Positions 27,155 to 41,550 are shown, counted from the stretch's first letter. The stretch: 52,201 nt of DNA from a virus (IMGVR_UViG_3300009124_000020); one strand, 5' to 3'. The notes: generated by a model not told the origin, from the letters alone. Numbers and translations: made by a program.

Positions 27155-27211
27155 AGTTTTGTTCTCCTAAAATGGTTTTATGTTTAACTATGACACTAAT
27201 AATACCCTTTA

Positions 27212-29326
27212 TTATACCCCCTGGTCAAGCATAAGTTCTTCATTATTCAACCAATTTTCACCGAATAAAATTTCAATATCTAAAGGTAAAAGTGGTTTGT
27301 AATCAAAGCGTTGCATCAGCTCTTCTTCAATATCTCGCATAGCCCAAACAAGTGTGTCTGTGACCTCGTTAAATTCTGAAGGGTGGCAGTCAACAACGAT
27401 AGAGTCATGGACTGTTAAAATGATTTTAGATTGAAGATCTAACTCTTTGAATTTTCTAAGAGCACGAACACAAGATAGGGGAACTATGTCAGCAGTAGCG
27501 AAAGATTGAACAGGATAATTAACTACAGCAGTTTGATTTGTAATTCTGCCACCATGTAATCTTTGAGCGTTGGGAAAGGCAAACTCTCTACCACTTGGAG
27601 TTCTAATAATACCCTCTGACATAACAGCATCTACAAGTTCCGTATGCCATTCTTTAAGTCCTTTATAGATATTAAAATATTCTTTGAAGTAATTACGAAT
27701 ATGGTCAGGTTCTCCCATACCAAGACCACCATAGAGAGGAGCGAATGTGTATGCTTTCGCCATCTGTCTTTGTGTTTTATCTATTTTACTTTCGCAACAT
27801 TGATTAATAATGGCTGCTGTTTGTTTATGGACATCTTTACCATTTGTAATGTCATCAATGATCTGACTATCTTTTGAAAGTTCTCCAGCAACTCTAAACT
27901 CTAGTCCAGAGAAGTCTGCTTCAATAATATGCCCCCCATCAAACCTAGAGATTACACATTTCCTTACAGGGAACTTTGAACCTTTGGGTTGATTTTGGAA
28001 GTTAGGATTAGAAGAAGATAATCTTCCTGTACGAGTAGTTGTTTGATTAAAGTTTGCATGAAGTATCCCATCATACCTAGTCCAAGTTTGTATACCTTTT
28101 ACAAAACTATCTAAGTAAGTAGAGATAGCATTTAGTCTTGATACACCTTCTAGGAATTGAACAGCCTTTTCATTACCTTTTGCTTGAGCTTGGGTAACTA
28201 ATCTTTTGATTGTTGTCTTGTCAGTTTTAAACCCATTAATACTAGCATCAGTAGGCCCTTGAGGAACTAATTTTAATCCGGCTGTTGCGTTGGTATTTTG
28301 TAAGATAACTCCTAGAGTATTACAATCTTTGCAGTTAGATGTCTTTACCCAGGGCTGACCATTCTTCTTATATCTCTGATAGTATCCTTTGCCTTTGCAG
28401 TTTGGACATTGATGAGCAATCGTTTTCTTAACAACTCTTGTTGTATTCCTAACAGCAGTAGCAAATTTATTGGGTGTCATTTTAGGTGCGTAAAGAGATT
28501 TACCTCTACTATCGACACCTATGTTAAATGTAGCTTTATGAAGATCTCTATTAGCTACAACTCTGCTATAAACAACCTTCGTCATATCAATCCCACTATT
28601 TAGATTGATAGGAGTATCTCCCATTACATCAGACACGATAGCATTGAGAGTATTTTCTATTTGTTCTTTTTCTTTAAGATAATCTAGTTCAACTTTTTCT
28701 AACTCATCTAAGTCAATCCTAATTCCATTCTGTTCCATTTCACATAAGAACAGCAGCATATCATGAGTAAGATTTAAAACAGGAGTTAGTGATCCTATTT
28801 CATTGACTTGTTGTTGATAGATTTGAGCACAGGACAATACATCAGCATCTGCGTATTCAATGACTGTATCTAAAGGCATAGCTTCAAAGCCTGTACCTTT
28901 TTTAAACATTTCATCTACAAGATCAGATTTCTTTAACTGTACCTGTCTTCTTATAGCTGTACCTTTCAAGGACTTATCTATGTGCTGTCCTCTAGCTAAA
29001 AGGTACTCCCCAACCATAGTACAATGTACCTTACTAGGGATTGGGAAGTTTGCTTCTAAAAGGTACATCAAATCAAACTTAGCATTATGAGCTATTATCT
29101 TTGACGCACTCTTAAGATCCTGGATTAGTTCATTAGGACTATCAGGACTGTCTTTTTCGTTATGGTGAAATATGGCTCTTTTAGGTTCGCCTAATTCATC
29201 ATCTTCAATCATTCTCCAATGGGCAGAAACAATCCTATTCTTTGGATTGAATGGAGAATTATCTATTATGTTATCGGTTAGAGTTTGAACTGTGGTTTCT
29301 AAATCTACTACTATCTCAATCGACAT
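27212..29326 (-). CDS. Family A DNA polymerase with 3'-5' exonuclease domain
   Basis: Exonuclease motifs: VDLETT, HNAKFDL, YADADV. Polymerase motifs: A (DFSGLEFRV), B (RQMAKAYTFAPLYG), C (VHDSIVVD). Confidence 0.9.
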   Translation of the reverse strand: MSIEIVVDLETTVQTLTDNIIDNSPFNPKNRIVSAHWRMIEDDELGEPKRAIFHHNEKDSPDSPNELIQDLKSASKIIAHNAKFDLMYLLEANFPIPSKVHCTMVGEYLLARGQHIDKSLKGTAIRRQVQLKKSDLVDEMFKKGTGFEAMPLDTVIEYADADVLSCAQIYQQQVNEIGSLTPVLNLTHDMLLFLCEMEQNGIRIDLDELEKVELDYLKEKEQIENTLNAIVSDVMGDTPINLNSGIDMTKVVYSRVVANRDLHKATFNIGVDSRGKSLYAPKMTPNKFATAVRNTTRVVKKTIAHQCPNCKGKGYYQRYKKNGQPWVKTSNCKDCNTLGVILQNTNATAGLKLVPQGPTDASINGFKTDKTTIKRLVTQAQAKGNEKAVQFLEGVSRLNAISTYLDSFVKGIQTWTRYDGILHANFNQTTTRTGRLSSSNPNFQNQPKGSKFPVRKCVISRFDGGHIIEADFSGLEFRVAGELSKDSQIIDDITNGKDVHKQTAAIINQCCESKIDKTQRQMAKAYTFAPLYGGLGMGEPDHIRNYFKEYFNIYKGLKEWHTELVDAVMSEGIIRTPSGREFAFPNAQRLHGGRITNQTAVVNYPVQSFATADIVPLSCVRALRKFKELDLQSKIILTVHDSIVVDCHPSEFNEVTDTLVWAMRDIEEELMQRFDYKPLLPLDIEILFGENWLNNEELMLDQGV
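28307..28414 (-). other. DnaJ-type CxxCxGxG zinc-finger insertion between the exonuclease and polymerase domains
   Basis: Residues about 305-340 read HQCPNCKGKGYYQRYKKNGQPWVKTSNCKDCNTLGV. Confidence 0.7.
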
Positions 29327-30548
29327 ATCTACTTACATCAGGTTTTATGTTGCACACGATTGTACCATGCCACCCAGAAAGTTTGTTTTTAGATACTGTG
29401 ATATATCTTGTTAAATCCTGTTCAGCTTCCTCAGAGTCATTTTCTATTTTTCCTATTCCTAGTATTAAGTCGGTTTCTGCACTTTTACCGATCTTGCTTC
29501 CTTCCATTTCAAACGGAGAAAGTTTAGTTCTTCCTTTTGCTTCAGCACTAGCTTGTGAAACTACCAATAGAGCACAATCATATCGTTTAGCTAATTCTCT
29601 AAATCTACGATATAGCTCTCTAAGTCTTTCATGACTTGCAGCAAAAGAACCACCAATATGAACTTTATCTGCTTGGTCTAAGATAACTACATCAGGGTTC
29701 ATCTTTTCAATAAATCCTTCTACTTCATCTAAAGACCAATCTTGTATGTCTTTCATTTCTATGTTGTCAGAAATCTTTGCAAAATATTCTCTAGCTTTGG
29801 TAGGGTTCTCTAAGATTTGTTTCTTAGTCATGTTGGTACAAGACTGTATTACTCGTAGCATTGTTCTATCTGTTTTTTCTTCATTACCAAGATAAAGAAC
29901 TTGTGCTCCTTGATGACAAAACCCACCTGGAGCAGCACAGAAAGAAACAGCACAAGCAGTCTTACCTGTTTCAGGAGTAGCGAAGATAACGCCAAACTCA
30001 CCAGGGCCTATCCCATAAACATTCTTATGAAGATATTTGAGATTGAACTTCCATCTATTTTTATCAGAAGTAAATTCTAAAAGTTCTTCAATGTCTTTTG
30101 TTGTTGTGGGGCCATAGTCATCAGGCATGAATGACTCTTTGGATTTTTCTATAAGATGTTCTAGGTTTTTAAGAGCGTTATGTTTACCTTCTGTAATCTC
30201 TAAGCCTATATGAGCTATCTTACGACCTATCTCTCTTTTCCAGAGATCTTCAATAACATCAGAAGCAATATCAAAAGAAATAGGATCTTCAGTTTGAATG
30301 CTTGTAATTAATTCTTTCATGGAATCAATCTCTGATCTAGTCGCAACAGGATACTTCTTTTTCCAAAGTTCAAATAGATCTGTTTCAGTTAAATCGTGAG
30401 AGTACTTTTTGTGGGCTTCTTTTAGTACTTGAAAGACATCAGCGACTTCATCATCAAACAATGTAGCCTTGAGTCTATTTTTGTTTTCATCAAAGAACTG
30501 ATAATTTAATAGTGATTTCAGTATCTTCGTGTCATTTGTAACGCTCAT
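29316..30548 (-). CDS. DnaB/T7 gp4-like replicative helicase (RecA-fold domain only)
   Basis: Walker A is GVIFATPETGKT and Walker B is VVILDQADK. It is adjacent to a separate primase gene. Confidence 0.8.
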   Translation of the reverse strand: MSVTNDTKILKSLLNYQFFDENKNRLKATLFDDEVADVFQVLKEAHKKYSHDLTETDLFELWKKKYPVATRSEIDSMKELITSIQTEDPISFDIASDVIEDLWKREIGRKIAHIGLEITEGKHNALKNLEHLIEKSKESFMPDDYGPTTTKDIEELLEFTSDKNRWKFNLKYLHKNVYGIGPGEFGVIFATPETGKTACAVSFCAAPGGFCHQGAQVLYLGNEEKTDRTMLRVIQSCTNMTKKQILENPTKAREYFAKISDNIEMKDIQDWSLDEVEGFIEKMNPDVVILDQADKVHIGGSFAASHERLRELYRRFRELAKRYDCALLVVSQASAEAKGRTKLSPFEMEGSKIGKSAETDLILGIGKIENDSEEAEQDLTRYITVSKNKLSGWHGTIVCNIKPDVSRYVD

Positions 30549-30650
30549 CTCCTAACTCCTCAATTACTTAACGCATTTATTAGTGTCACAGGATAACACA
30601 TATTGCAAATAAATTGATAGCTAATAACTGTAAAAGTTTTGTAAAAATAG

Positions 30651-30678
30651 AAAAAAAAACCCCTCTAAAGAGAGGGGC
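30651..30678 (-). terminator. Intrinsic terminator; its 28-nt sequence is repeated at 37468-37494
   Basis: On the minus strand, hairpin CCCCTCT-CTTT-AGAGGGG is followed by T9. Confidence 0.7.
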
Positions 30679-30717
30679 TTAAACTTTGATTAAAAAAGTA
30701 GCAAAAAAATACTTAAA

Positions 30718-30924
30718 TCAGCTAATTCTCAATTTCATTTTTTTGATGTCTGGTTTCTTTCCAGTATCTCTTCTTTCACGAATATCAACTTCGTGATATA
30801 TGACTCTAGGGTTTCCTTTCACTAGACTTGCTATAGCCTTTTCTAAGGCTTCTTGTTCTTCAGCAGCATCTTTGAACCCACCAGGTAAGTTATAGTCTAT
30901 GATTGCTATTGCTCTAGCTTTCAT
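30718..30924 (-). CDS. Hypothetical protein
   Basis: 68-aa ORF between the primase gene and the terminator. Confidence 0.5.
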   Translation of the reverse strand: MKARAIAIIDYNLPGGFKDAAEEQEALEKAIASLVKGNPRVIYHEVDIRERRDTGKKPDIKKMKLRIS

Positions 30925-30952
30925 GACCTCTCCTCTTCTTTTTAGTTATTTT

Positions 30953-31753
30953 TTATTTATTTAGTAGTTTCCTTAGTCTGCTCGACCCCATGTTTTTTAT
31001 ATCTTCTTCAAGTAGAAGAACTTTTGGGTTTATTCCATTATAAGTGCTCTTACTATGCTTGATACTAGTTGCCCTAGCATCAGCGTCAAGTGCTATTGTT
31101 AGTGCTTTGAACTGTTTTAATTGTTGTCGTTGTTGATGTTCTATATTTGTTCCTAATAAAGCCACTCCGACATATCCAGGTATCTCACTAACTACACAAG
31201 CTGAAGGCACATCTTCTACTACAATAGCATGATCGCCTTTACCTATAATAAAGCAACCTGAAGTATCTCCATAGACTTTCCATTTAGGTATTTTAAACTT
31301 CTTATTAGTTGGGGGATCTCCAATATACCTACCAACAGCCCCTGTCTTATTATTCATAAAGAAGAGTACTCGTTGGTCTCTAGGTGTGTACTTAATGTGT
31401 ACTGCATGAGTATTGTATACATCAAAGCAATTAACATCTTTTAAATACTGTATAGCGTTGGGGTGGTACTCAATGTTAGATAAAATTGAAGGTATCTCAT
31501 TCGGATTAGATTTCTTGAATGTTGGCTTACCTGAAGACAAACGATCTTTAATTGAATGAATAGACAGCTTACTATCTTTAACTCCTTTGGCATTACAAGA
31601 AGCCTTATAACAATTCCAGAGAAGTCTTCCTTGGTGCTTAGAAAGAGATAAAGTTTTATGGCCCCCACAGAAAGGACAGTTAATTCTCTTACTAGAGTTA
31701 TCTCTAAGTATGACGCTTTTGATCGTTTCGTATTGTTCTTTAAATGAATACAT
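30953..31753 (-). CDS. DNA primase (zinc ribbon plus TOPRIM)
   Basis: Zinc ribbon CPFCGGHK...WNCYKASC. TOPRIM acidic motifs VVEDVPSA and ALDAD. The start is at MYSFKEQ, preceded by GAGGG. Confidence 0.75.
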   Translation of the reverse strand: MYSFKEQYETIKSVILRDNSSKRINCPFCGGHKTLSLSKHQGRLLWNCYKASCNAKGVKDSKLSIHSIKDRLSSGKPTFKKSNPNEIPSILSNIEYHPNAIQYLKDVNCFDVYNTHAVHIKYTPRDQRVLFFMNNKTGAVGRYIGDPPTNKKFKIPKWKVYGDTSGCFIIGKGDHAIVVEDVPSACVVSEIPGYVGVALLGTNIEHQQRQQLKQFKALTIALDADARATSIKHSKSTYNGINPKVLLLEEDIKNMGSSRLRKLLNK

Positions 31754-31833
31754 TAATAAAACCCTCAACTATGACACTTGTTATGAGAATAGTAACTGAT
31801 TTTTGTTGTAAGTGCTTGTTTTTGTTAAAAAGT

Positions 31834-31878
31834 GTCATAACCTGAAGGTCGTAGGTTCAAATCCTACTCCCGCAACCA
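31834..31878 (+). other. attP core candidate: a copy of the 3' half of an initiator tRNA-fMet, from the anticodon loop to CCA
   Basis: GTCATAACCTGAAGGTCGTAGGTTCAAATCCTACTCCCGCAACCA compares with E. coli tRNA-fMet CTCATAACCCGAAGGTCGTCGGTTCAAATCCGGCCCCCGCAACCA. There is no matching 5' half. It lies 380 nt from the integrase gene. Confidence 0.7.
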
Positions 31879-31952
31879 ACATTTTGAAACTATTAGATTT
31901 TACTATTCCCATAACTATTCAAATTGAGTTGAGTTGGTAAAAGTTGAGAATC

Positions 31953-32267
31953 TTACTGATTCTTGATGAAAATTCCATCTTTCATGACTCCTGTTCTATC
32001 CTTGATGTCTTCGTATGCTACTTGCATACATTCCTTTAAAGAGACCCCTCTTCGTTCAGCAATGTTAATTAGAATTACTAAAATATCTCCAACATCATCT
32101 CTAATGTCTTTGCCTTTACAAACATTGTCTGAAAGTTCTCCTACCTCTTGTATCAGCTTAAGAACTTGATCCTTTTCTGTAGAACCTTCTATTAAGTTTC
32201 TATCTTTGTGCCATTCAACAATTTGGTTGATGACTTTGTGTGTGCATTGAAATTCCATATTATCCAA
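31953..32267 (-). CDS. mazG: MazG-like nucleoside triphosphate pyrophosphohydrolase
   Basis: The EVGELSD...DDVGDILVILINIA metal-binding helix pattern is present in a 104-aa protein. Confidence 0.75.
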   Translation of the reverse strand: MDNMEFQCTHKVINQIVEWHKDRNLIEGSTEKDQVLKLIQEVGELSDNVCKGKDIRDDVGDILVILINIAERRGVSLKECMQVAYEDIKDRTGVMKDGIFIKNQ

Positions 32268-33333
32268 ACCTCTTGTTAATTCCTGTGGCTGCTAACTTGT
32301 CTGTTGGTCTTACATAAATAGACAAAACATCTCGTGATTGATGCCCTGTAACAGATCTAAGTTCATCTTCAGTACAACCACTTTCAGCCATTTCGGTTGC
32401 ACCTGTTCTTCTAAGGTCACTTATCTTTAACTCTTTAGGGAGTTTTGCTTCTTCTTTAATTATTGCAGCCCATTTAGAGTAAAGCCTACGATCAAATCCT
32501 TTATGGGTAGCTTCACAAACCACGATGGAATCTTCTTCCTTCCTATTCGTTGGAATGTTAGACAAGCGTTCAATCAATCTAGGTGAGCCTGGAATGTTTA
32601 CTCTTTGTCCTGTCTTCTCTTGGATAAACTCAAAAGAGTAGCCATCATAGTTAGACCATGTAAGCTGTCGCATATCTCCAGGTCTTTGACATAAATCATA
32701 ACAAAGCAAAGCTAGAGTACCTACTGACCCTTTGTTCATCTCATCAGCAGTAGCTATGAATGCCTTTACTTGTTCAGGAGACCAAAGAACTGTTCTGCTC
32801 TTCAATCCTTTTAGTCCCATCTTCTCAAACGGATTAGATTGAACTTTTGAATGTCTTTTACCTACAAACCAAATCTTTCGTAGCACTTTGATTGTGTGCA
32901 CAGCTCTATGCCTACTTACTTGCTTAGTTATAGTATCGTAAATCTTGTCGGTATGAGTTGGTGTGACTGTTCTAGCTAGATAGTCTTTGAGAAGTATCTT
33001 TGACTCACCGATACGAGTGTCTAATGCTGTTCGTATCATGAGGTTGTAAAGATCTTTAGTATTGTCTTTGAGTTTAGTCCATTCGTTAGTGGTCTTATAG
33101 AAGGCAATTAGACCCCCAACAGTATCTTGCTTGATGGAGATGTCTTTCTTATTGCCTTTCTTATACTCCTGGTAAGCATCTGCTATCTGCATAGCCCTAT
33201 TGATAGCATCTTTCTTAGCTTCGTATTGTTCGTACTTAACTCCAAGGGCCTGTTGGACATAAGGGGGTGGAGAGACAGCAAAAATGATCCTACCATTCGC
33301 CCTAGCTCTCGTTTCCAGGTATTTTACTTTCAT
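32260..33333 (-). CDS. int: Tyrosine integrase
   Basis: Catalytic-domain motifs are present: CQRPGDMRQLTW, DLRRTGATEMAESG, and GHQSRDVLSIYV (R..H-x-x-R..Y). Confidence 0.9.
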   Translation of the reverse strand: MKVKYLETRARANGRIIFAVSPPPYVQQALGVKYEQYEAKKDAINRAMQIADAYQEYKKGNKKDISIKQDTVGGLIAFYKTTNEWTKLKDNTKDLYNLMIRTALDTRIGESKILLKDYLARTVTPTHTDKIYDTITKQVSRHRAVHTIKVLRKIWFVGKRHSKVQSNPFEKMGLKGLKSRTVLWSPEQVKAFIATADEMNKGSVGTLALLCYDLCQRPGDMRQLTWSNYDGYSFEFIQEKTGQRVNIPGSPRLIERLSNIPTNRKEEDSIVVCEATHKGFDRRLYSKWAAIIKEEAKLPKELKISDLRRTGATEMAESGCTEDELRSVTGHQSRDVLSIYVRPTDKLAATGINKRFG

Positions 33334-33372
33334 AATTACTCCTATAAGTGTCTTAGTTAGTTATGAGAACTC

Positions 33373-33401
33373 AGGATAGTATCATAATTTATTAGTGTCA
33401 A
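33373..33401 (-). promoter_or_regulatory. Leftward promoter for int (P_int) overlapping a palindromic operator
   Basis: On the minus strand: TTGACA (33401-33396), 17-nt spacer, TATCCT (33378-33373). The -35 lies inside TAGTGTCAACACTA. Confidence 0.45.
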
Positions 33402-33414
33402 CACTATTGTCATA
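33393..33414. repeat. Left arm of a 22-bp inverted repeat (partner 34789-34810, 21 of 22 identical), containing the palindrome TAGTGT-CA-ACACTA
   Basis: TAGTGTCAACACTATTGTCATA compares with the reverse complement of 34789-34810, TAGTGTCAACACTAATGTCATA. Confidence 0.85.
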
Positions 33415-33435
33415 GTAATGGTATTAAGCTATCAT
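33407..33435 (+). promoter_or_regulatory. Rightward promoter, back to back with P_int
   Basis: TTGTCA (33407-33412), 17-nt spacer, TATCAT (33430-33435). Confidence 0.35.
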
Positions 33436-33478
33436 GTAATCTCTCTCCTCAAGAGAACTTCATTGCTAGTGGAGTTGA

Positions 33479-33507
33479 CCCCCTGGGGAGACCTGGGGGG
33501 TTTTTTA
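33479..33507 (+). terminator. Intrinsic terminator or attenuator hairpin immediately upstream of the methyltransferase gene
   Basis: GC-rich hairpin CCCCCTGGG-GAGA-CCTGGGGGG, followed by T6. Confidence 0.6.
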
Positions 33508-33508
33508 T

Positions 33509-33528
33509 TTATAGCTGCGTCAGAATAT
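33509..33528 (+). repeat. 20-bp direct repeat, copy 1 (TTATAGCTGCGTCAGAATAT)
   Basis: 19 of 20 nt identical to 34657-34676. It overlaps the ATG of the methyltransferase gene. Confidence 0.85.
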
Positions 33529-34453
33529 GAGCTACGAAATACATCAAGGAAATTGCATAGACATTCTCAAAGAATTACCAGAGAAGTCCGTAAATACCTG
33601 TGTCACTTCCCCACCTTACTTTGGTCTCAGAAACTATGGAACTGAGGGTCAATTTGGTATGGAAGAAACGATAGATGAGTTCGTAGATAATCTTGTCAAA
33701 GTCTTTCAAGGAGTAAAACGAGTTCTAAAAGATGATGGAACTGTGTGGCTTAATCTTGGGGATAGTTATGGTGCTCAAAAAGGAAAAGGTTTCAATACTC
33801 ATGCCGATCAAGGAACAGGTAATCGTGTCCAGGAGATGCAAAAGAAGTATGGAGACATCAAAGTTAAGACAGGTTTACCAGCTAAGAATTTATTAGGTAT
33901 TCCTTGGAGAGTTGCTTTAGCTCTTCAAGCTGATGGTTGGATCTTACGACAAGACATCATTTGGCATAAACCAAACCCTATGCCTGAAAGTTGTAGAGAT
34001 CGCTGCACAAAAGCTCATGAATATATCTTCTTACTCTCTAAGAACCAGAAGTATTACTATGACCATGAAGCAATAAAAGAACCATCTAAGTATCCTAATG
34101 GGCCTATAACCCCAGCAAGTATTGGAAAAAAGAATAAAGAGCTTCCAGGCTTTGAGATTAGAGATGGTCTAAAGAACATGACAGGCAGTTATCCAACTAA
34201 AAATAAAAGATCTGTATGGACTGTGACTACTAAGCCATGCAAAGAAGCTCATTTTGCTACTTTTCCGATAGATTTAATTGAACCCTGCGTATTAGCTGGT
34301 AGTCCAGAAGGTGGAACAGTTCTTGATCCTTTTGGTGGAAGTGGAACAACTACTATTGCTGCTGAAAAACATAAAAGAAACTCAATCTTAATTGAATTAA
34401 ATCCAGAGTATATTGAACTAGCAAAAAACCGAATCCGACAGCATGAAGATTGA
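33527..34453 (+). CDS. Beta-class N4/N6 DNA methyltransferase (SPPY motif)
   Basis: Motif IV (VTSPPYFGLRNY) precedes motif I (VLDPFGGSGTT), which is the beta permutation, and the N-terminus resembles CcrM. No Shine-Dalgarno sequence is visible. Confidence 0.85.
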   Translation: MSYEIHQGNCIDILKELPEKSVNTCVTSPPYFGLRNYGTEGQFGMEETIDEFVDNLVKVFQGVKRVLKDDGTVWLNLGDSYGAQKGKGFNTHADQGTGNRVQEMQKKYGDIKVKTGLPAKNLLGIPWRVALALQADGWILRQDIIWHKPNPMPESCRDRCTKAHEYIFLLSKNQKYYYDHEAIKEPSKYPNGPITPASIGKKNKELPGFEIRDGLKNMTGSYPTKNKRSVWTVTTKPCKEAHFATFPIDLIEPCVLAGSPEGGTVLDPFGGSGTTTIAAEKHKRNSILIELNPEYIELAKNRIRQHED

Positions 34454-34652
34454 CAAGGAAGCGTTGCAAGAGACCCTGCATGATGTCTTCCTGGGACTAT
34501 TGATCGCTTTTCCGGTTGGTTTTATGAGTTTATCAATCTGTCGTATGCTAGATCTGAACACTCTGACCACTAGCTTCATTCAAACAAGTATTTTTCTTTT
34601 CATCTCGATCATTCGTAAGTATTACATTCGGCTGCTCTATAAAAATAAATAG
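34443..34652 (+). CDS. Small membrane protein
   Basis: 69 aa with two hydrophobic segments. It overlaps the methyltransferase gene end by 11 nt. Confidence 0.45.
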   Translation: MKIDKEALQETLHDVFLGLLIAFPVGFMSLSICRMLDLNTLTTSFIQTSIFLFISIIRKYYIRLLYKNK

Positions 34653-34656
34653 ATCG

Positions 34657-34676
34657 TTATACCTGCGTCAGAATAT
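34657..34676 (+). repeat. 20-bp direct repeat, copy 2 (TTATACCTGCGTCAGAATAT)
   Basis: 19 of 20 nt identical to 33509-33528. It starts 5 nt after the stop of the small membrane gene. Confidence 0.85.
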
Positions 34677-34788
34677 ACCATAGCCCCCATCAGTTTAGAC
34701 TTCATTTAAAGGGATCTTAAAAAAGATCTTCATACCCAGGAGACCTCCAGGTGGTCTTCAATCAGATACCAAAATCAGTTTTTATTCC

Positions 34789-34810
34789 TTATGACATTAG
34801 TGTTGACACT
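34789..34810. repeat. Right arm of the 22-bp inverted repeat, overlapping the -35 of the rightward promoter
   Basis: See 33393-33414. Confidence 0.85.
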
Positions 34811-34829
34811 AGTAATGACATGAGTAAAA
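34802..34829 (+). promoter_or_regulatory. Rightward promoter for the 34879-36981 accessory cluster
   Basis: TTGACA (34802-34807), 16-nt spacer, TAAAAT (34824-34829). AGGAG at 34865-34869 precedes the ATG at 34879. Confidence 0.6.
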
Positions 34830-34878
34830 TGTAGTTATGGGAACAATTATGTTCCTTGTTATTTAGGAGTAATAAACT

Positions 34879-35262
34879 ATGAAAAGTAGACTAACTTTCA
34901 AGTCGAATAAGTCGCTTCGCAAATTAGCGAGTGAGACTATCAAATCGAGCAACTTCAAAATTGCTTATCGTGATAAATACACTTCAGAAAAATCTTTTTA
35001 TCTTGTCAAAGATGATGGGATTTATTTGATGAATGCTTATCAAACGCCAAAAGATAAAACACCAAAAACAAATAATACTGTTGTTTATGCTAGTGGCTTC
35101 AACCCAAATTTTAATGAAGATATTTGGGAGAAAACTTACGCTGTCTCTTCTGACGATTTCGCAATGAATATCGTATTAGATGATGGTCAATTAGAACGCA
35201 TTGCAAATGGTGGGACTGTCACAGTCACTCTTGCTGAAGACTATTATGAGGTGAGAGCATGA
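34879..35262 (+). CDS. DUF3085-like protein
   Basis: FYLVKDDGIYLMN...VVYASGFNP...W...SSDDF resembles the DUF3085 pattern recalled from ICE and plasmid accessory regions. Confidence 0.4.
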   Translation: MKSRLTFKSNKSLRKLASETIKSSNFKIAYRDKYTSEKSFYLVKDDGIYLMNAYQTPKDKTPKTNNTVVYASGFNPNFNEDIWEKTYAVSSDDFAMNIVLDDGQLERIANGGTVTVTLAEDYYEVRA

Positions 35263-35651
35263 GCACAAGAGCAGTTTATACTTTCATTAGTAAAAGTGAT
35301 TGGGGACTTCAAGAAGTTCACATTTACAAACATCATGATGGCTACCCAATAGGGGGCATAGACTTTATCGACATGGCAAGTAGAGGGGCTTCTTCTACTG
35401 ATGTTTCAAAGAGAGATTTATTGGTCGCAAACTTCATAATCGAAAATCGAAATGAAGGGCTAATAGAAATTACTTCTCATTGGAAACATCATGGAGATTT
35501 AGAATATCGTTATGAGATAGAAGAAGACTTAAATATCAGAATTTTTGAATTGAGTTTTGATAGTGGAGATTGGTCTCTCATCTATGAAGGTCACTTAGAT
35601 AAATTCAAAGACTCTACTCTCTTCAAGAGAATTGAAAGGGGGGTAGCATAA
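35259..35651 (+). CDS. Hypothetical protein
   Basis: 130 aa with an ATGA overlap to the upstream gene. It has a conserved-looking AVYTF...VHIYKHHDGYPIGG N-terminus that I cannot place in a family. Confidence 0.55.
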   Translation: MSTRAVYTFISKSDWGLQEVHIYKHHDGYPIGGIDFIDMASRGASSTDVSKRDLLVANFIIENRNEGLIEITSHWKHHGDLEYRYEIEEDLNIRIFELSFDSGDWSLIYEGHLDKFKDSTLFKRIERGVA

Positions 35652-36034
35652 TGCCTAATTGGTGTGAAAATACAGTCAGAGTTCATGGAGATGTTGAAGA
35701 GGTTAAGGAGTTCATTGACTTCGTTAAATCTAAAGAAAGTGACTTTGACTTTGAGAAGATATGTCCGTTTCCAAATGGGGAATGGGATTACGATTGGTGT
35801 ATCAATAATTGGGGCACAAAATGGAGTGTTAATCCAACAGAAATATTAACTGACCATGATGAAGAAGTAGCCGAATATTTTTTTGATACAGCTTGGAGTC
35901 CACCTGAAGGAATTTACAGCGAACTTGTAAAGAAATTCAAAATTGGAACTGAAGAAAGTAGCTTGAGCATTTCATGGTTTTATCATGAACCAAATATGGA
36001 ATTTTGTGGCTATCTTCAGAATGACTATGAATGA
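35651..36034 (+). CDS. YubB/Api92-like (DUF1281) protein
   Basis: The N-terminal MPNWCENTVRVHG and internal NNWGTKW motifs recall the DUF1281 ferredoxin-like family found in plasmid leading regions. Confidence 0.45.
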   Translation: MPNWCENTVRVHGDVEEVKEFIDFVKSKESDFDFEKICPFPNGEWDYDWCINNWGTKWSVNPTEILTDHDEEVAEYFFDTAWSPPEGIYSELVKKFKIGTEESSLSISWFYHEPNMEFCGYLQNDYE

Positions 36035-36084
36035 AACGCAATCAAACACATTCAGAAAACTTGAAATGGTTGGAAAGGAAAGAC

Positions 36085-36116
36085 CCCCATATCCCCCCAA
36101 AGGGTATGGGGTTTTT
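36085..36116 (+). terminator. Internal intrinsic terminator or attenuator
   Basis: CCCCATA...TATGGGG stem with an inner CCC/GGG extension, followed by T5. Confidence 0.45.
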
Positions 36117-36200
36117 CTACAAGGTGATAGGGTTCATTACTTTTTGGTCATGGGTCATATCGTATCTACAAAACTTATAATTCTTGAGGAGAATTGAGCA

Positions 36201-36602
36201 ATGAAACTTAAATATAAAGAAAGGAATAAGCACACGCATATTAGAAATAATATCTTTGACTTACCAACAGGCGAACTAGAGAAACCCCTTAGAAGTGGAA
36301 AAGAGGTTTTTGAGTTCATACTTAAACACGCCAATAAAGACAGATATGCCTTTAAAGGAAGAGGGAGAGGAAGTAGGAAAGTTCATGGAAGAGGGTATAT
36401 GAGAGATTTACCTTTAGAACATTCTGAAAAAATCGCCCTCTATGTAAATCAAAGAGAACGCATTACACAGAAAGAAATAGAAGAACGAGCAAGAAGTAAA
36501 TCTGCGTGGGAGATTTCTTGGAAACTTCGTGACCTAGAGAAATTGGTCAATGAGCATAATCTAAACTTTGAGAATGACATTGAGTTAGAGGTGGACGAAT
36601 GA
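36201..36602 (+). CDS. Hypothetical basic protein
   Basis: 133-aa ORF preceded by GAGGAG. Confidence 0.55.
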   Translation: MKLKYKERNKHTHIRNNIFDLPTGELEKPLRSGKEVFEFILKHANKDRYAFKGRGRGSRKVHGRGYMRDLPLEHSEKIALYVNQRERITQKEIEERARSKSAWEISWKLRDLEKLVNEHNLNFENDIELEVDE

Positions 36603-36781
36603 GTGTTAAGCTAAAAGAATACAGACTCGTCAGAGTATCTCGTAAGGTTGAAGAGTGTTATGTGAGGGCTACTGATTGGGAAGATGCCGAAAGGAAAGGG
36701 CATGAAGAAGAACAAGATTGGGAGCATTGCAATAGTAGAGATGAAATAGAGGTTGATTTAGATGGGAGTGAAGAAGAATGA
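36599..36781 (+). CDS. Hypothetical protein
   Basis: 60 aa with an ATGA overlap to the upstream gene. Confidence 0.45.
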   Translation: MSVKLKEYRLVRVSRKVEECYVRATDWEDAERKGHEEEQDWEHCNSRDEIEVDLDGSEEE

Positions 36782-36981
36782 GTATTCAAGATAGACTAGA
36801 TGAACTCGGTATATGTCGTGATACTGTAATCGTTGAAATAGAAGGTGGAGTGCTCAAAGAGGTTCACAATACCCCTAATGATTATGTTCTGTTTGATTGG
36901 GATAACATCAAAGAGGAAGGAGAAACCATCAACAAAGAAGGCGAACTGCTTTTGATGTTGGAAACATTACAGGAGTGCTAA
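36778..36981 (+). CDS. Hypothetical protein
   Basis: 67 aa with an ATGA overlap to the upstream gene. Confidence 0.45.
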   Translation: MSIQDRLDELGICRDTVIVEIEGGVLKEVHNTPNDYVLFDWDNIKEEGETINKEGELLLMLETLQEC

Positions 36982-37018
36982 TGAACTAAAAATGCAATCA
37001 TGCGTCAAATGAATAATT

Positions 37019-37042
37019 AACCCCCTTTATGGGGGTTTTTTA
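37019..37042 (+). terminator. Intrinsic terminator closing the accessory cluster
   Basis: CCCCC-TTTAT-GGGGG followed by T6. It is followed at 37053-37065 by GTGCGTCAGATAT, a third copy of the direct-repeat core. Confidence 0.7.
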
Positions 37043-37137
37043 TTGCTTACAGGTGCGTCAGATATAAAAAAACACTCTCTAGGGACACTCACACATCACA
37101 CAGGCTATATTTCTGTATATACACAGGTAAGAATTTT

Positions 37138-37209
37138 GATCTGATTAGATCTTCCAAAAAATCGGATCTCTAAAAAAATAAATAATTTAGGATCTAAAAT
37201 TTAAGATCT
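37138..37209. repeat. Cluster of five GATCT/AGATCT sites interspersed with A-tracts
   Basis: GATC occurs at 37138, 37148, 37166, 37191 and 37205. GGATCTAAAATTTAAGATCTTC resembles GGATCTTAAAAAAGATCTTC at 34712-34731. Confidence 0.8.
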
Positions 37210-37467
37210 TCTCAGCTCTATTTTTAGGCAGCATGGGGGCCATTAATTTTGTTCCAGGAGTTCACCCCCTAAAAAATTTAATCTCTTGCAGCTTACCCAT
37301 AGAAAGAAAATAAGACGATTAGAGCCACTATTTCAACAGAAGCCAACACAAGCCCCAATTTTAGAAAGAAAGCATTTAAATCGTCTATTTCTTGCCATGT
37401 ATTCTTTTTTATATCTCTCATACATATACAACGATTAAGGGGGCTATTTGTGACAAAAGACATACAC

Positions 37468-37494
37468 AAAAAAAACCCCTCTAAAGAGAGGGGC
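37468..37494 (-). terminator. Intrinsic terminator of the two-gene minus-strand island; same sequence as 30651-30678
   Basis: The plus strand reads AAAAAAAACCCCTCTAAAGAGAGGGGC. Confidence 0.7.
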
Positions 37495-37528
37495 TAAAAA
37501 CTAGGGGGTAAGTTTTTATTTTAGGGGA

Positions 37529-37762
37529 CTAGAAGAGAACGCCTAAACGCTTTAATTCTTGTCTAACTTCAACAGAAGACATTTCAAAAGAGTCACCATC
37601 AACATAGTCTATAAATGCTCTTACTTTATATTGTCTTTCTTTGTGCTCCATGTAGGAATTGCAAAGTTCATATAAACTTTCATATTCAAATTCAGAACCA
37701 CTTTCCCACGCACTCTCTAAGGTTAGACGATATGAGCCGATTTCTTTTAGGTTATCCATCAT
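37529..37762 (-). CDS. Hypothetical acidic protein
   Basis: 77-aa ORF, the second gene of the divergent island. Confidence 0.5.
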   Translation of the reverse strand: MMDNLKEIGSYRLTLESAWESGSEFEYESLYELCNSYMEHKERQYKVRAFIDYVDGDSFEMSSVEVRQELKRLGVLF

Positions 37763-37768
37763 AACCCC

Positions 37769-38077
37769 CTATTTAAAAAATGCGTGTTCTATCGCATCAT
37801 TAGAATTTAAATCATAAAGACGATAAACGCCCTCTTTGATTTTCTTCTCTGTTTCTCTCTTCTTCTCATTCAAGAATTGATTTCTATATTTCCCTGTAGT
37901 GGTTGAGTAGTCCCACGCATTCTCATCTAGGTATGTATTACCTTGATTATCTATATAACAAATAACTGTTTTATAAGACTGAAAGAAAATCCCATCACTT
38001 GTATTAATAACAAATTGATTGGGGACAGCGTGACCACTTGAAGAGGTCATATTTTCAACATGAGTTTTACTTTTCAT
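37769..38077 (-). CDS. Hypothetical protein
   Basis: 102-aa ORF preceded by AGGAG. It has a conserved-looking NQFVI...FQSY...WDYSTTTGKYRNQFL pattern that I cannot place in a family. Confidence 0.55.
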   Translation of the reverse strand: MKSKTHVENMTSSSGHAVPNQFVINTSDGIFFQSYKTVICYIDNQGNTYLDENAWDYSTTTGKYRNQFLNEKKRETEKKIKEGVYRLYDLNSNDAIEHAFFK

Positions 38078-38125
38078 AATTGCTCCTAAATAAAAAACTA
38101 ACGCTTAATTGCTTTAGTTAGTGTC

Positions 38126-38154
38126 ATAGTAAAGGGTTTTATTAATGCTGTCAA
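38126..38154 (-). promoter_or_regulatory. Promoter of the divergent island, overlapping a CTATGACACTAACTAA motif copy (38114-38129)
   Basis: On the minus strand: TTGACA (38154-38149), 17-nt spacer, TACTAT (38131-38126). Confidence 0.55.
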
Positions 38155-38622
38155 ATACTAGCGATAAATTACATATGGAAAAGATGCACACAGAGACCCC
38201 ACGCCCTCTCTGTTGTGTTCTGTAAATGGGGGATAGGGGGTAAATTCTCTTAAATTTAAAAGCCCCTTACTCTTTGGTTATGACCCCCAAATAATAAAAG
38301 CCTTTATTGTTGGGGCTTTGCTCTCATCAGTTGATTTTTTCTAGTTGATAATTGATTTTTTAGAGAGATATAAAAATTATTAGACCCTTTAAAATCAAGG
38401 GCTAGAAGCTAGAAAGCCTTATATATAGGGGGTGCGACTGACAGGGGGGTGGATACCGATATCGTATACAACTCCGACACAATTTTAGAAAAATGGGACT
38501 GTAAATAACTACGATCAGATGGGTATGGACTCAGGTTTGTAAACTCCATACTAGATATAGTGTTTTTTTGGGGTGGGGTTTACATATATTGTAAATTAAT
38601 GTAATAATAGGTGTCATAACTA

Positions 38623-38651
38623 TTGACTTACAAAGAAATAATTAGTACTTT
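38623..38651 (+). promoter_or_regulatory. Candidate promoter for the gene at 38703
   Basis: TTGACT (38623-38628), 17-nt spacer, TACTTT (38646-38651). Confidence 0.35.
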
Positions 38652-38702
38652 AGTAAGTGTTGTGGGGAAAACTACAATATATGCTCTTAACCAGGGTATT
38701 TA

Positions 38703-39083
38703 ATGTCTAACAATGACAACTTTATTATTAGCGATTCAGCAGATCTAACTGTCCCCATAGTTACCGAAATAGATTTAGAAATAAACTTCAATGGCGTACT
38801 AGACATTGTTGCTTATGTGTTTCCTAGAGCTGAAGATCAAGGTGCAGAATGTCGAGTAGAGTTTGAAGAGGTAATAGAAAAGTTAATTAACTATTATCAA
38901 ACTTCAGATGAACAAGACAATCTAACTCAGGTCTATTCTATAGCTCACGAACTAGCTCGTCAGGCAGATCGCCTAAGAGATATTGGACGAAGACTAGAGG
39001 AATCCCAAGAAGACTATCTACCACCTCTGTCACAAGAGGACGATGTAGATGGCAACATCAAAGATGAAGTGGAAGAAGACTGA
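38703..39083 (+). CDS. Strongly acidic small protein (DNA-mimic or anti-restriction candidate)
   Basis: 126 aa. By my count there are 33 Asp/Glu and 9 Lys/Arg. It is the first gene downstream of the long non-coding tract. Confidence 0.55.
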   Translation: MSNNDNFIISDSADLTVPIVTEIDLEINFNGVLDIVAYVFPRAEDQGAECRVEFEEVIEKLINYYQTSDEQDNLTQVYSIAHELARQADRLRDIGRRLEESQEDYLPPLSQEDDVDGNIKDEVEED

Positions 39084-39429
39084 ACTTGATCGTATAGATC
39101 TAGAGCAGCTACTTGAATACGCTATCAAGCAAAAACTAGCCAACACTCTTACGACAGTAAAAGCATGGTGTAAGAAAAACAAAATCCCCTATGACATAAC
39201 CATAGAGGATCTAAAACCTTTCCCATTAAGTTGTCCTGTATTTGATACGCCTATTGATTGGTTGAAAGAAGGACAAGGCCCTTCAAACGACTCTCCATCA
39301 ATAGATCGTATGAAACCTAAATTAGGATATGTTCCAGGGAATGTAAGAATAGTAAGTCAGAAAGCTAATCGACTTAAACAAAATGCTACGAAAGAAGAAT
39401 TACAAGCAATCGTAGAATACATGGATTAA
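39049..39429 (+). CDS. HNH-family endonuclease-like protein
   Basis: SPSIDRMKPKLGYVPGNVRIVSQKANRLK matches the SxDRIdxxxGYxxGNvxxxSxxANxxK pattern of a phage HNH subgroup. GAGGA lies 8 nt before the ATG. Confidence 0.45.
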   Translation: MATSKMKWKKTELDRIDLEQLLEYAIKQKLANTLTTVKAWCKKNKIPYDITIEDLKPFPLSCPVFDTPIDWLKEGQGPSNDSPSIDRMKPKLGYVPGNVRIVSQKANRLKQNATKEELQAIVEYMD

Positions 39430-39980
39430 TGATAGTAATAGATAATTTCCTACAACCTGAAGTCTTCATGTTACTTCAGAATGAAAAGTATTGGGAAAAA
39501 CCCCTTCCACTAAACTTCATAGCTAGAGAAAAAGATAACTTTGATAATGTCTATCTAAGTATAGTCAAACATGGTTGGTCAGCAGCTAGTAAGTTAGATC
39601 CTACAATAAAGAAATCTTATGAAGAAAGAAAAGGAATAGAGTTGTGGACTCACATTCTAGGCCCCAATGAAAAAGACAATGGTTTAGATTGGCATATAGA
39701 TAAAGATGAAAAGTTATATGAAGAGACAGGTAAAATAAAAACCCCCTTATATGGGAGTATCTTTTACTGTCATCAGGAGATTAATCTAATAGATGATATG
39801 GGAATGCTGGAGTTAGGAACTCCCCCAGAGATAGAAAGAATAAAACCTTTACCTAACAGGCTCGTAATCTTCAAAAGCAATACCCCTCATAGGGTAACTC
39901 CAGGAACACAAAGTAGTCCAAGGAGATCTATAATTTCAAACTTATGGGATTATGATTTAACGAAGGGAGAAGAGGTATAA
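39429..39980 (+). CDS. 2OG-Fe(II) oxygenase superfamily protein
   Basis: HxD (WHIDKD) plus a distal His (NTPHRV) in a double-stranded beta-helix-like context. Confidence 0.6.
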   Translation: MIVIDNFLQPEVFMLLQNEKYWEKPLPLNFIAREKDNFDNVYLSIVKHGWSAASKLDPTIKKSYEERKGIELWTHILGPNEKDNGLDWHIDKDEKLYEETGKIKTPLYGSIFYCHQEINLIDDMGMLELGTPPEIERIKPLPNRLVIFKSNTPHRVTPGTQSSPRRSIISNLWDYDLTKGEEV

Positions 39981-40067
39981 CCCTATATATATACCCCCCT
40001 GGACTGCAATCCATTTATATCATGGATTTATTAAGTCGTCAACAAATACTTTAATTAATTTCACTTG

Positions 40068-40097
40068 TTGACATAACTATGCCCCTAGTGGTATAAA
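40068..40097 (+). promoter_or_regulatory. Strong sigma70-like promoter at the head of the late block
   Basis: TTGACA (40068-40073), 18-nt spacer ending in TGG, TATAAA (40092-40097). The -35 is overlapped by the inverted repeat GTCAACAA (40038-40045) / TTGTTGAC (40065-40072). Confidence 0.55.
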
Positions 40098-40101
40098 TAG
40101 T

Positions 40102-40341
40102 ATGAGCAGAAACCCTCAGATCAATCTGCATTATATTCGTGCAGCAATCAAAGCCAACACAGGTGTTGATGTTGAATTTGGTGAGCTTAAGAAACTTCTC
40201 GTAGAAGAAAAACTTATTACTCAAGCCCAAGCGAATAGGCTGAAGATCTTAAAAAATTATAACGAGTACTACGAAGATTACACTTCTAGTCCTTCTATTT
40301 CTAAGGGTGGCTCTACTTCAGAGGGAGAATATGAAAGTTAA
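40102..40341 (+). CDS. Hypothetical protein (possibly leaderless)
   Basis: The ATG lies 5 nt after the -10 element, and there is no Shine-Dalgarno sequence. Confidence 0.4.
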   Translation: MSRNPQINLHYIRAAIKANTGVDVEFGELKKLLVEEKLITQAQANRLKILKNYNEYYEDYTSSPSISKGGSTSEGEYES

Positions 40342-40669
40342 AAAAGCTAATTGTGGTGCATCAGTAAAAGCTCATGGTTTTAATATGGGGGGTGGCTATC
40401 AAGGTATTACCAGCACTAGCCGACTAAACAAAGAACAAGATCGTGAACAAAAGATGCGTAAGCTAGGTCTTAGCACAGGTGCGATGGTTGAGCGTAGAGA
40501 AAAAGCAGACGCTAAACAATCAGCTATGGCAAAAGCAGAATCCATGAAAAAAGGTGCTGCTAAAGGTACTAAGGCAAAAGCTGTTCAATCAGAGAAGAAG
40601 AAAGACGAAATCAAAGCCTATGGTGGTAAACACATGAAAGGCAAAAAGAAAAAGTCTTATTCTTACTAA
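40331..40669 (+). CDS. Small lysine-rich basic protein
   Basis: The start is at MKVKKAN after GAGGGAG. The protein is Lys/Ala-rich. Confidence 0.5.
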   Translation: MKVKKANCGASVKAHGFNMGGGYQGITSTSRLNKEQDREQKMRKLGLSTGAMVERREKADAKQSAMAKAESMKKGAAKGTKAKAVQSEKKKDEIKAYGGKHMKGKKKKSYSY

Positions 40670-40677
40670 GATTATTT

Positions 40678-40863
40678 ATGCCAACCAAAAAGAAATCGAA
40701 AGTAAATCAAGCTGGTAATTACACCAAGCCTACTATGCGTAAGAACCTGTTTAATAAAATTAAGTCAGGATCAAAAGGGGGTAAAGCAGGTCAATGGTCT
40801 GCTAGAAAAGCTCAAATGTTGGCAAAACAATATAAAGCGAAAGGTGGGGGCTATAAATCGTAA
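40678..40863 (+). CDS. Small basic protein with a GQWSARKAQ motif
   Basis: KGGKAGQWSARKAQMLAKQYKAKGGGY is a motif I recall from small proteins of marine phages and large DNA viruses. Confidence 0.5.
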   Translation: MPTKKKSKVNQAGNYTKPTMRKNLFNKIKSGSKGGKAGQWSARKAQMLAKQYKAKGGGYKS

Positions 40864-41102: not shown

Positions 41103-41104
41103 TA

Positions 41105-41398: not shown

Positions 41399-41550
41399 AG
41401 ATATTATGAAAAAATTTAACGCAGTAAAAGTCTGCAAACAGTTACAACTTATTCCTAAAAACAAACACTATACAAGAATGCTAGAAGTTTCTTTGATCTG
41501 TATGGTGGTTTTGTTTTTATTAATAGCTATATTTTAAGAGTACAATAAGA

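Follow-up and report, generated by a model that had tools for sequence, protein, structure and literature searches.

The 52,201-nucleotide virus contig IMGVR_UViG_3300009124_000020, called the window over its whole length, carries beside its tyrosine integrase gene a long inverted repeat whose two arms each lie on the -35 region of an outward-firing promoter-like site. We propose that the arms are probably two copies of one promoter-region module within a conserved control hub. That a factor other than RNA polymerase binds these arms is a claim we hold more tentatively, at slightly below an even chance. Phages are already known to have repeats on divergent promoters, methyltransferases as cargo, and small RNAs; what is new here is a small RNA (sRNA) gene divergent from the integrase throughout a phage family, a slot that takes methyltransferases of different families, and a network of TGACACTA sites.

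An inverted repeat on divergent promoters

The left 22-mer, TAGTGTCAACACTATTGTCATA, occupies 33393-33414, and its reverse complement, with a single A/T difference, occupies 34790-34811 (21/22 identity). A sequence-only reading had described this repeat at the same identity; the repeat is real, but that reading placed its right copy one nucleotide too far left (34789-34810) and made it too short, as a repeat finder extends it to 26 nt with 24/26 positions complementary (33389-33414 versus 34790-34815) across a spacing of 1375 nt. With up to three mismatches allowed, the 22-mer is found at these two places of the window only and in none of 100 dinucleotide-preserving shuffles. The palindromic core reported for it, TAGTGT-CA-ACACTA, is borne out as a perfect 6+2+6 palindrome (33393-33406 on the left, 34798-34811 on the right) that covers a TTGACA box in both arms (33396-33401 and 34803-34808). 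There is one palindrome per arm, and the neighbouring repeats are direct, with a 12-bp period. On the right, 3.1 tandem copies of the 12-mer ATGACATTAGTA (34791-34827, plus strand) cover the arm and the spacer of the rightward promoter, while the left arm holds two adjacent units and two weaker ones. The features of the hub are as follows.

32260-33333, minus: tyrosine integrase gene
33357-33371, plus: TAGTTATGAGAAC, a same-strand version of the TAGTTATGGGAAC motif, in the integrase leader
33373-33401, minus: P_int, with TTGACA (33401-33396), N17 and TATCCT (33378-33373), upstream of the integrase ATG at 33333
33389-33414, no strand: left arm, comprising the palindrome TAGTGTCAACACTA, the -35 box of P_int (33401-33396, minus) and the -35 box of P_sRNA (33407-33412, plus)
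33407-33435, plus: P_sRNA, TTGTCA-N17-TATCAT, firing inward from the left arm and kept in close relatives
33436-33509, plus: small RNA gene, with hairpin 1 (CU-rich loop), hairpin 2 (loop UUGCUAG) and a rho-independent terminator
33509-33528, plus: left copy of a direct repeat, TTATAGCTGCGTCAGAATAT, 20 bp, abutting the methyltransferase ATG
33527-34453, plus: beta-class N6-adenine/N4-cytosine DNA methyltransferase with a TSPPY motif, variable cargo
34443-34652, plus: DUF7220 small membrane protein of 69 amino acids, its start overlapping the methyltransferase end; resident in all close relatives
34657-34676, plus: right copy of the direct repeat, five nt past the DUF7220 stop; the ancestral copy
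34790-34815, no strand: right arm, comprising the palindrome (34798-34811) and the rightward -35 box (34803-34808)
34803-34830, plus: P_R, with TTGACA (34803-34808), N16 and TAAAAT (34825-34830), upstream of the open reading frame at 34879
34832-34856, plus: start-proximal motif TAGTTATGGGAAC, followed by the 5' hairpin of the rightward transcript
34879-35262, plus: first gene of the rightward operon, DUF3085-like; the first gene varies between relatives

The three best sigma-70-like matches in 31500-37500 are P_int, P_sRNA and P_R, and all three also stand within the top nine of the whole window. They match 11/12, 10/12 and 10/12 consensus positions with hexamer spacings within 16-18 nt, the best promoter-like site of the window being P_R (11/12). 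The -35 elements that had been noticed in the two arms (TTGACA-N17-TATCCT and TTGACA-N16-TAAAAT, both outward) were read correctly, and their positions are conserved in relatives, which carry TTGACA-N16-TATATT at the position of P_int. Because the -35 boxes of P_sRNA and P_int are 5 bp apart on opposite strands, too close for two polymerases to be accommodated together, these two promoters probably compete. Within the first 110 nt upstream of the integrase, loci L034 and L035 carry a deletion of about 20 nt that leaves one TTGTCAA, usable as a -35 box both by P_int (TTGACA, other strand) and by P_sRNA (TTGTCA-N17-TATCAT).

Several other assignments were considered for these elements and rejected. 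TAGTGT serves as a -10 box in P_int of mid-clade relatives, and on reading the window no -35 box was seen at the right distance from it. Nor do the TATGACAC units act as -35 boxes of extra promoters, since the contexts read show no acceptable -10 box at 16-18 nt downstream. By eye, the 20-bp direct repeat has no usable promoter hexamers, and nothing convincing was seen for host LexA or IHF boxes against their consensus sequences. The DUF3085-like gene occurs in unrelated contexts lacking P_R, and therefore the rightward promoter does not travel with its first gene.

Relatives and the mosaic structure of the promoters

The DNA polymerase and integrase of the window have their counterparts in Roseobacter phages CRP-3, CRP-235 and CRP-212, at 55-58% and 46-59% identity respectively, with HMO-2011 farther away. 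Judged by these similarities, the window belongs to an HMO-2011-type marine podovirus whose closest isolates are CRP-3 and CRP-235. Phages of this type are reported to be one of the most abundant and widespread groups of marine viruses, and some have an integrase (PMC9038755); neither PMC9038755 nor PMC6918029 mentions promoters, a repressor, any other control over integration, or methyltransferases. The integrase-bearing subgroup that includes CRP-3 has its gene order, DNA polymerase, integrase and tRNA-Met core of the phage attachment site (attP) in common with the window, and left of the hub the window carries the tyrosine integrase, MazG, primase, helicase and DNA polymerase genes. The hub, the sRNA and the motif family set out here are not described in the same two papers.

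Scans with the integrase recovered 20 loci from viral and 43 from metagenomic sequences, and an integrase-based prophage search in 185,579 reference genomes returned none. About 45 related loci shape our reading. The closest relative has 80% integrase identity, and by close relatives we mean those at 66-80%. Wherever their sequence is long enough, the close relatives keep the order integrase, P_int/P_sRNA, sRNA with its terminator, DUF7220 and P_R. The left site is present in 14/14 close-relative rows (about 10 distinct sequences) as (A/G)(C/T)TTGTCAATACTATTGTCATA, with both -35 boxes kept and without the palindrome. The right promoter comes in two types. Type A, TTTGACACTAA(C/T)AAA...TATCAT, has only the TTGACA hexamer in common with its own left promoter; type B contains TAGTATTGACAATTA, and most type-B relatives share 12-14 nt with their own left promoter. 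Similarity between left and right thus runs from 6 to 26 nt across lineages, with the long repeat in the window alone, and the repeat is not a conserved operator. As a separate observation on the rightward early transcript, its 5'-terminal hairpin in the window (GGGAACA-ATTA-TGTTCC, 34839-34856) is retained in type-B relatives (L005, L032, L034, L037) with a different stem, GAGAA(C)AGCA-TGG-TGCTTTCTC.

Aligned on the hexamer, the two promoters of the window are mosaics. Their upstream half is of the left-promoter type (TATGACA(A/T)TAGTG), and their downstream half resembles type-A right promoters (CTAATAAA). Outside the hexamer the left and right promoters of the window agree at 18/26 positions, while the right promoter agrees with any orthologous right promoter at no more than 14/26. 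This pattern is as expected from gene conversion between promoters, and we suggest that gene conversion or recombination produced the long left/right identity; co-evolving operators could also give such a pattern.

The same evidence would suit a plainer account, in which a strong promoter passed on about 26 bp by recombination or gene conversion, no regulator is involved, and the repeat matters solely through its consensus -35 box and flanking polymerase contacts. In its favour are the mosaic structure of both promoters, the 6 to 26 nt range of similarity among relatives, a first rightward gene that is itself mosaic, and the lack of a regulator gene in the scans described below. We consider this account rather unlikely, although it deserves to be taken seriously; what it leaves unexplained lies in the wider motif family and is taken up there.

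Inverted repeats of 26 bp lying 1.4 kb apart beside a recombinase gene also call to mind the termini of a transposable cassette, or crossover sites for a segment inverted by the adjacent tyrosine recombinase. To this we give almost no credence. The flanks differ, so there is no target-site duplication, and the interior (methyltransferase and DUF7220) holds neither transposase nor invertase. Relatives without the long repeat keep the same internal genes in the same order, the orientation of DUF7220 relative to the integrase is constant in 21/21 close-relative loci carrying DUF7220, and inversion would alter neither outward promoter. A single inversion between the hexamers was likewise rejected as the source of the similarity, as it would not yield a mosaic and no relative has the segment inverted.

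A family-wide small RNA gene divergent from the integrase

The stretch immediately downstream of P_sRNA (33436-33509) folds as three hairpins (-30.3 kcal/mol, z = -2.7). The terminator, with a stem of 11 pairs at 33477-33502 followed by a T run, outranks every other terminator-like hairpin of the region. Hairpin 1 has a stem that is wholly different between clades yet always paired, with at least 10 stem sequences around a CCUCCC-type loop, and compensatory changes are also present in hairpin 2 (CUUCA-UUGCUAG-UGAAG) and in the terminator. In all family members with sequence upstream of the integrase, a promoter-like site firing away from it is followed by a hairpin with a CCUCCC-like loop and then by a terminator, and this P_int/sRNA arrangement is family-wide at 40-80% integrase identity. 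HMO-2011 itself lacks the divergent integrase/sRNA arrangement. An sRNA gene of about 70-150 nt lies at the same position in L001-L011, L025, L027, L028 and L030-L068.

From six close sequences we built a covariance model, which detects a single copy in the window (86.7 bits) and gives matches with E < 0.01 upstream of the integrase in 16 other loci, including CRP-3. In the model alignment, 95.9% of cells are paired and 17/19 pairs change on both sides, far above shuffled and slid controls, with the proviso that fitting of the alignment to the model, and some weak matches within it, make these figures lean towards structure. The RNA falls in no Rfam family: anti-hemB (RF02837) scores 21.6-22.5 bits where 49.5 are needed, and the toxic sRNA RF02278 scores 15.9 where 50 are needed. 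A scan of the whole window against Rfam gives nothing at the gathering score in the repeat region, its sole hit being a tRNA at 19103-19176. In the CRP phages the sRNA is succeeded by a second, bidirectional terminator and then by a convergent gene; there it is an RNA gene standing on its own.

Phages are known to encode regulatory RNAs such as lambda OOP, P22 sar, P1 c4 and the P4 CI RNA, and sRNAs whose C-rich loops act against Shine-Dalgarno sequences include RsaE, the alphaproteobacterial CcsR/cuckoo RNAs and anti-hemB. Like these, the sRNA of the window is a short terminated RNA in a lysis/lysogeny region with CCUCCC-type loops; unlike them, it is antisense to no gene and belongs to no Rfam family. 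The C-rich loops suggest that ribosome-binding sites could be paired by the sRNA. When it was folded as a duplex against all translation starts, no target emerged, the output being uninformative and marked by long artefactual duplexes. A candidate target for the hairpin-2 loop, a single 7-nt match upstream of DUF7220, was rejected because relatives lack it.

A methyltransferase slot between resident genes

The methyltransferase scores 176 bits against PF01555 (cut-off 26.7), and its relatives in the Protein Data Bank include 2zie, CcrM, MboIIA and PvuII. In the slot it occupies, it is found in L039 (83% identical) and L057 (91%) only, and it is missing in the other close relatives (about 10 distinct contigs). 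Since the methyltransferase alone comes and goes, it alone is variable cargo. In L001 the slot holds another gene, which has C5-cytosine methylase motifs (PPC, ENP) and scores 21.1 bits against PF00145, where the cut-off is 22:

L001 1130-1813, minus: C5-cytosine-methylase-like gene (the contig is also L023)

This C5-type gene means that two methylase families use one slot. The 20-bp direct repeat has the consensus TTATA(G/C)CTGCGTCAGAATAT, and its two copies flank the methyltransferase together with DUF7220. Relatives that have no methyltransferase carry the sequence once, after DUF7220, and in L057 a motif like it also stands ahead of the methyltransferase start. No promoter or terminator belonging to the methyltransferase was found, and its start codon comes about 20 nt after the sRNA terminator; read-through of that terminator is the only evident route by which the methyltransferase and DUF7220 would be expressed.

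These results change the picture of the interval between the arms. It had been described as 1.4 kb holding only the methyltransferase and a small membrane protein. Both are present, but the description is incomplete, because P_sRNA (a third promoter), the sRNA gene, the direct repeat and the 12-mer array are found as well. The suggestion that the whole cassette was inserted into an ancestral divergent promoter region does not hold, as the sRNA and DUF7220 genes are resident in all close relatives and the methyltransferase alone varies. The same suggestion implied that some related phages would have a single operator region, and none was found. Even in the distant relatives with nothing between the sRNA terminator and the rightward promoter (L014, L018, L019, L064-L068), the sRNA gene still lies between two distinct promoter regions. 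The slot that the methyltransferase fills as cargo runs from the sRNA terminator to DUF7220, and the gene is not the content of a mobile cassette bounded by repeats.

In the PeSL promoter/stem-loop cassettes of T4-type phages and in phage morons, repeated regulatory sequences flank shuffled cargo genes. The hub resembles these systems in that a varying cargo gene lies between short regulatory repeats, near a promoter and a terminator, and in that another methyltransferase family fills the same slot in another phage. Unlike them, the cargo of the window has no promoter or terminator of its own and depends on read-through from the sRNA promoter, and it is bounded by the 20-bp direct repeat, not by the 26-bp inverted repeat.

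A related motif, (C/G)TGCGTCAGA(A)TAT, lies at 33515-33527, 34663-34675 and 37053-37066, just past terminators or gene ends and at the boundaries of variable cargo. It is also present in CRP-235 (L025, about 190-205; L026, about 5690-5705), in L011 and in L049-L054, and elsewhere in the family it takes the form ACTCGCACGTCA(G/A)A. This boundary motif may be a recombination junction.

A wider family of TGACA motifs

The arms belong to a larger set of sites. The exact 9-mer TATGACACT is present five times in the window (19749, 27189, 31770, 31831 and 38120) where about 0.6 are expected, and all five are intergenic on the gene map. The pattern TGACACTA(A/G) is present six times where about one is expected; all six are non-coding, the two arms being among them, in a window of which 9.3% is non-coding. 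Taken together, TATGACAC(T) and TGACACTA(A/G) exceed expectation, with two 8-mer copies inside genes (6582 and 8857) and the rest in non-coding DNA. The TGACACTA(A/G) and TATGACAC sites adjoin promoters of early or replication genes, or the attP core. Members beyond the hub are the following.

19747-19755, minus: TGACACTAA site, about 47 nt upstream of the open reading frame 19372-19698
27191-27199, plus: TGACACTAA site shortly past the -10 box of the promoter behind the DNA polymerase gene; L004 and L005 conserve it
30580-30588, minus: TGACACTAA site 30 nt ahead of the helicase start, with the 14 nt TGACACTAATAAAT identical to the left arm
38118-38126, minus: TGACACTAA site overlapping the -10 box/start region of a leftward TTGACA(38154)-N17-TACTAT
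38611-38627, minus: GTCAATAGTTATGACAC, agreeing with 14/17 positions of the arm core, among promoter-like sites

When a position matrix was trained on the six strongest sites, its next-best matches clustered at the P_int hub on the minus strand (33343, 33374, 33390 and 33402), with one more in the right arm, and 14/34 of the best non-training matches were non-coding. Mid-clade relatives carry two to four copies of the motif per locus in both orientations, which points to recognition at the DNA level. Because the arms belong to a non-coding, promoter-associated motif family, we find it plausible from these sequence patterns that one factor acts at several promoters. Plain duplication of a promoter would leave unexplained at least four other non-coding TGACACTA(A/G)/TATGACAC sites, some of them past -10 boxes and some inverted, as well as the 12-bp tandem arrays.

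The sequence TGACACTA is also present in the SP6 promoter. We rejected the units as promoters for a T7/SP6-type polymerase, as the papers on HMO-2011-type phages (PMC9038755, PMC6918029) report no RNA polymerase for them; the large open reading frames were not scanned. An exact search of viral contigs for the extended palindrome gave a single match, in an unrelated contig of a giant-virus bin. Tandem 12-mers, TTGACACTAGTG, equal to the unit of the right arm, occur in L021 (GVMAG-M-3300005662-25_000001) at about 4785-4830, in a contig otherwise dissimilar to the window.

A possible link to the attachment site

Members of the motif family also stand beside the likely attachment site of the phage.

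31767-31879, no strand: attP region, comprising a 38-nt tRNA-Met 3' half (31842-31879) and an inverted pair of TATGACACTT (31770-31779 and 31830-31839)

CRP-3 integrates into a tRNA-Met gene (PMC6918029). In the window the 38-nt tRNA 3' half lies between MazG and primase, and because it is identical to the tRNA-Met half of the CRP-3 attP region (L101, about 3171-3208), we take 31842-31879 as the likely attP core. Given the integrase, the kinship with CRP-3, which integrates, and the identical tRNA 3' half, the phage is very probably temperate. Four loci (L001, L004, L032 and L034) lack the entire attP segment between MazG and primase and yet carry the integrase.

Two of the five TATGACACT sites (31770-31778, plus, and 31831-31839, minus) make up a 10-nt inverted pair directly left of the tRNA core. 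This pair is retained in L002, L005, L030, L036 and L039; the tRNA core of L005 differs, and L039 has three tandem 12-mers at this place. A second element, GTTATG(A/G)GAA, stands on the same strand at both outward transcript starts (33357-33371 and 34832-34844) and again in the attP arm. A form of it, (A/G)GTTATG(A/G)G, is also seen in the integrase leaders of most relatives. The integrase leader of L011 and L049 is a near-perfect complement of the tRNA-Met anticodon arm, and on this likeness we read it as a mimic of the attB core or of the anticodon arm. The TTATG that adjoins the core is the tRNA anticodon loop itself, and the 31831 site is also upstream of the primase gene.

These observations suggest that the integrase or an accessory recombination protein might bind at promoters as well. 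P2 Cox and coliphage 186 Apl are small excisionase-regulators that bind arrays of direct repeats at attP and at switch promoters. The window resembles these systems in having direct repeats about one helical turn apart over putative switch promoters and, less securely, in related units next to the likely attP core; it differs in that no Cox/Apl-like gene was found in it and in the 12-bp period of its repeats. In the strongest form of the idea, the integrase or a recombination directionality factor binds attP and the TGACA units at P_int, P_sRNA, P_R and other early promoters, so that the integrase is autoregulated and early transcription is coupled to recombination, as with P2 Cox and 186 Apl. 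It would account for the TATGACACTT inverted pair beside the tRNA core in the non-coding attP-primase interval, for the three tandem 12-mers of L039, for the retention of the pair in L005 despite a different tRNA core, and for GTTATG(A/G)GAA at both outward starts and in the attP arm, a sequence similar, in L011 and L049, to the complement of the anticodon arm of tRNA-Met. We nonetheless regard this form as unlikely. The 31831 site is partly tRNA-derived and stands upstream of primase, and no Cox/Apl-like gene was found. A proposed covariation between the sequence adjoining the attP core and the integrase-leader motif was also rejected, as CRP-3 shows the match (TATACG in both) but CRP-212 and CRP-235 do not.

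The search for a regulator and the comparison with lambda

Pfam and PHROGs scans of 23 open reading frames (29316-41976) returned no helix-turn-helix or repressor family, in agreement with the sequence-only reading, which had recognised no repressor gene. No Cox/Apl-like small DNA-binding family was matched in those scans, in which many small open reading frames had no match of any kind.

The sequence-only reading had likened the two arms to the OL and OR operators of phage lambda. In a pair of that type, a dimeric repressor would bind TAGTGT-N2-ACACTA at both sites and shut down integrase and early transcription. There is some reason to think so: a perfect palindrome covers the -35 box of each promoter, the phage is probably temperate, and the two promoters are more alike (18/26) than the right one is to its orthologues, which is how co-evolving operators would look. 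Related sequences on the -35 regions of two outward promoters in a temperate phage are indeed a feature in common with lambda. However, the comparison fails on several counts, and we judge a lambda-type pair to be quite improbable. The palindrome is found in none of the relatives examined, its extended pattern being exact in one unrelated viral contig, and left/right similarity is not maintained among them. Lambda has three tandem operators per site, whereas each arm has a single palindrome amid direct 12-bp repeats and the rest of the motif family consists of lone units without a palindrome. Four changes turn the sequence of the relatives into the perfect palindrome, one half of which is the -35 box itself. 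The window has no repressor gene in the open reading frames scanned, and where lambda has a central cI it has an sRNA, a membrane protein and cargo. Finally, the left promoter drives the integrase, unlike PL, which drives a lytic early operon.

A model for the control hub

We propose that the arms are best understood as a duplicated promoter-region module, and that the hub would work as follows. Transcription from P_int would run leftward through the integrase, MazG, the attP site and the replication genes; P_sRNA would produce, rightward, a terminated sRNA of about 70 nt; and P_R would drive, also rightward, a mosaic set of small early genes. The module itself would consist of 12-bp (T/A)TGACA-N6 units, two on the left and three on the right, and would form part of a clade-specific family of TGACACTA(A/G) and TATGACAC sites that are non-coding and lie by early promoters and in the attP-primase interval. 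One sequence-specific factor besides RNA polymerase may well recognise the TGACA units, a suggestion that concerns the 22-mer and the TGACACTAAC sites. Candidates for this factor are the integrase itself or a small Cox/Apl-like protein, and its occupancy would act jointly on the integrase, sRNA and early-gene promoters.

A number of points weigh against this picture. The TGACACTA motif is absent from CRP-3 and from relatives farther off, which would make any factor specific to the clade. The motif could reflect promoter architecture or common descent instead of a regulator, because part of it is a -35-like hexamer and part of the 31831 site is a tRNA anticodon loop. The matrix and the degenerate patterns were designed after the sites had been seen, which makes their statistics partly circular, while the exact 9-mer counts are unbiased. 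The promoters are predicted from consensus matches, and the scanned open reading frames yielded no DNA-binding protein. No relative above 80% integrase identity was found by which to date the origin of the long repeat, present only in the window.

A further step can be imagined, in which this clade of HMO-2011-type phages settles integration and early-gene expression with no classical repressor. Through a divergent promoter pair, integrase would be set against a conserved sRNA with anti-Shine-Dalgarno loops, and a TGACACTA-type network at all early promoters and beside attP would be read by one protein, possibly the integrase. We offer this as a speculation, itself unlikely but worth stating; under it, the 26-bp inverted repeat would be the most extreme case of the TGACACTA-type network. 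If one factor does read the motif, or if the sRNA acts on the integrase or early genes, then the hub would be a compact, non-lambda form of lysogeny control in very common ocean phages. Otherwise, the repeat exemplifies recombination between promoters and is of local interest only. What the analysis provides is a map of the hub: three promoters, a family-wide sRNA next to the integrase, a swap slot for methyltransferases and a motif common to early promoters.

Other non-coding features of the window

Two long non-coding stretches, 37040-37530 and 38078-38702, lie between convergent or divergent units and contain promoter-like and terminator-like sites and G-rich runs; neither holds an open reading frame or an Rfam match. 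Clusters of (A/G)GATCT are seen in non-coding DNA at 34714-34730, at 37130-37215 and in the DUF7220 flanks of relatives. The second of these has six GATC within about 80 nt, including AGATCT. Such clusters might mark a replication origin, serve as binding sites or be targets of a methylase. A tRNA-Arg (TCT) gene (19100-19176, minus) lies between the structural and replication modules.

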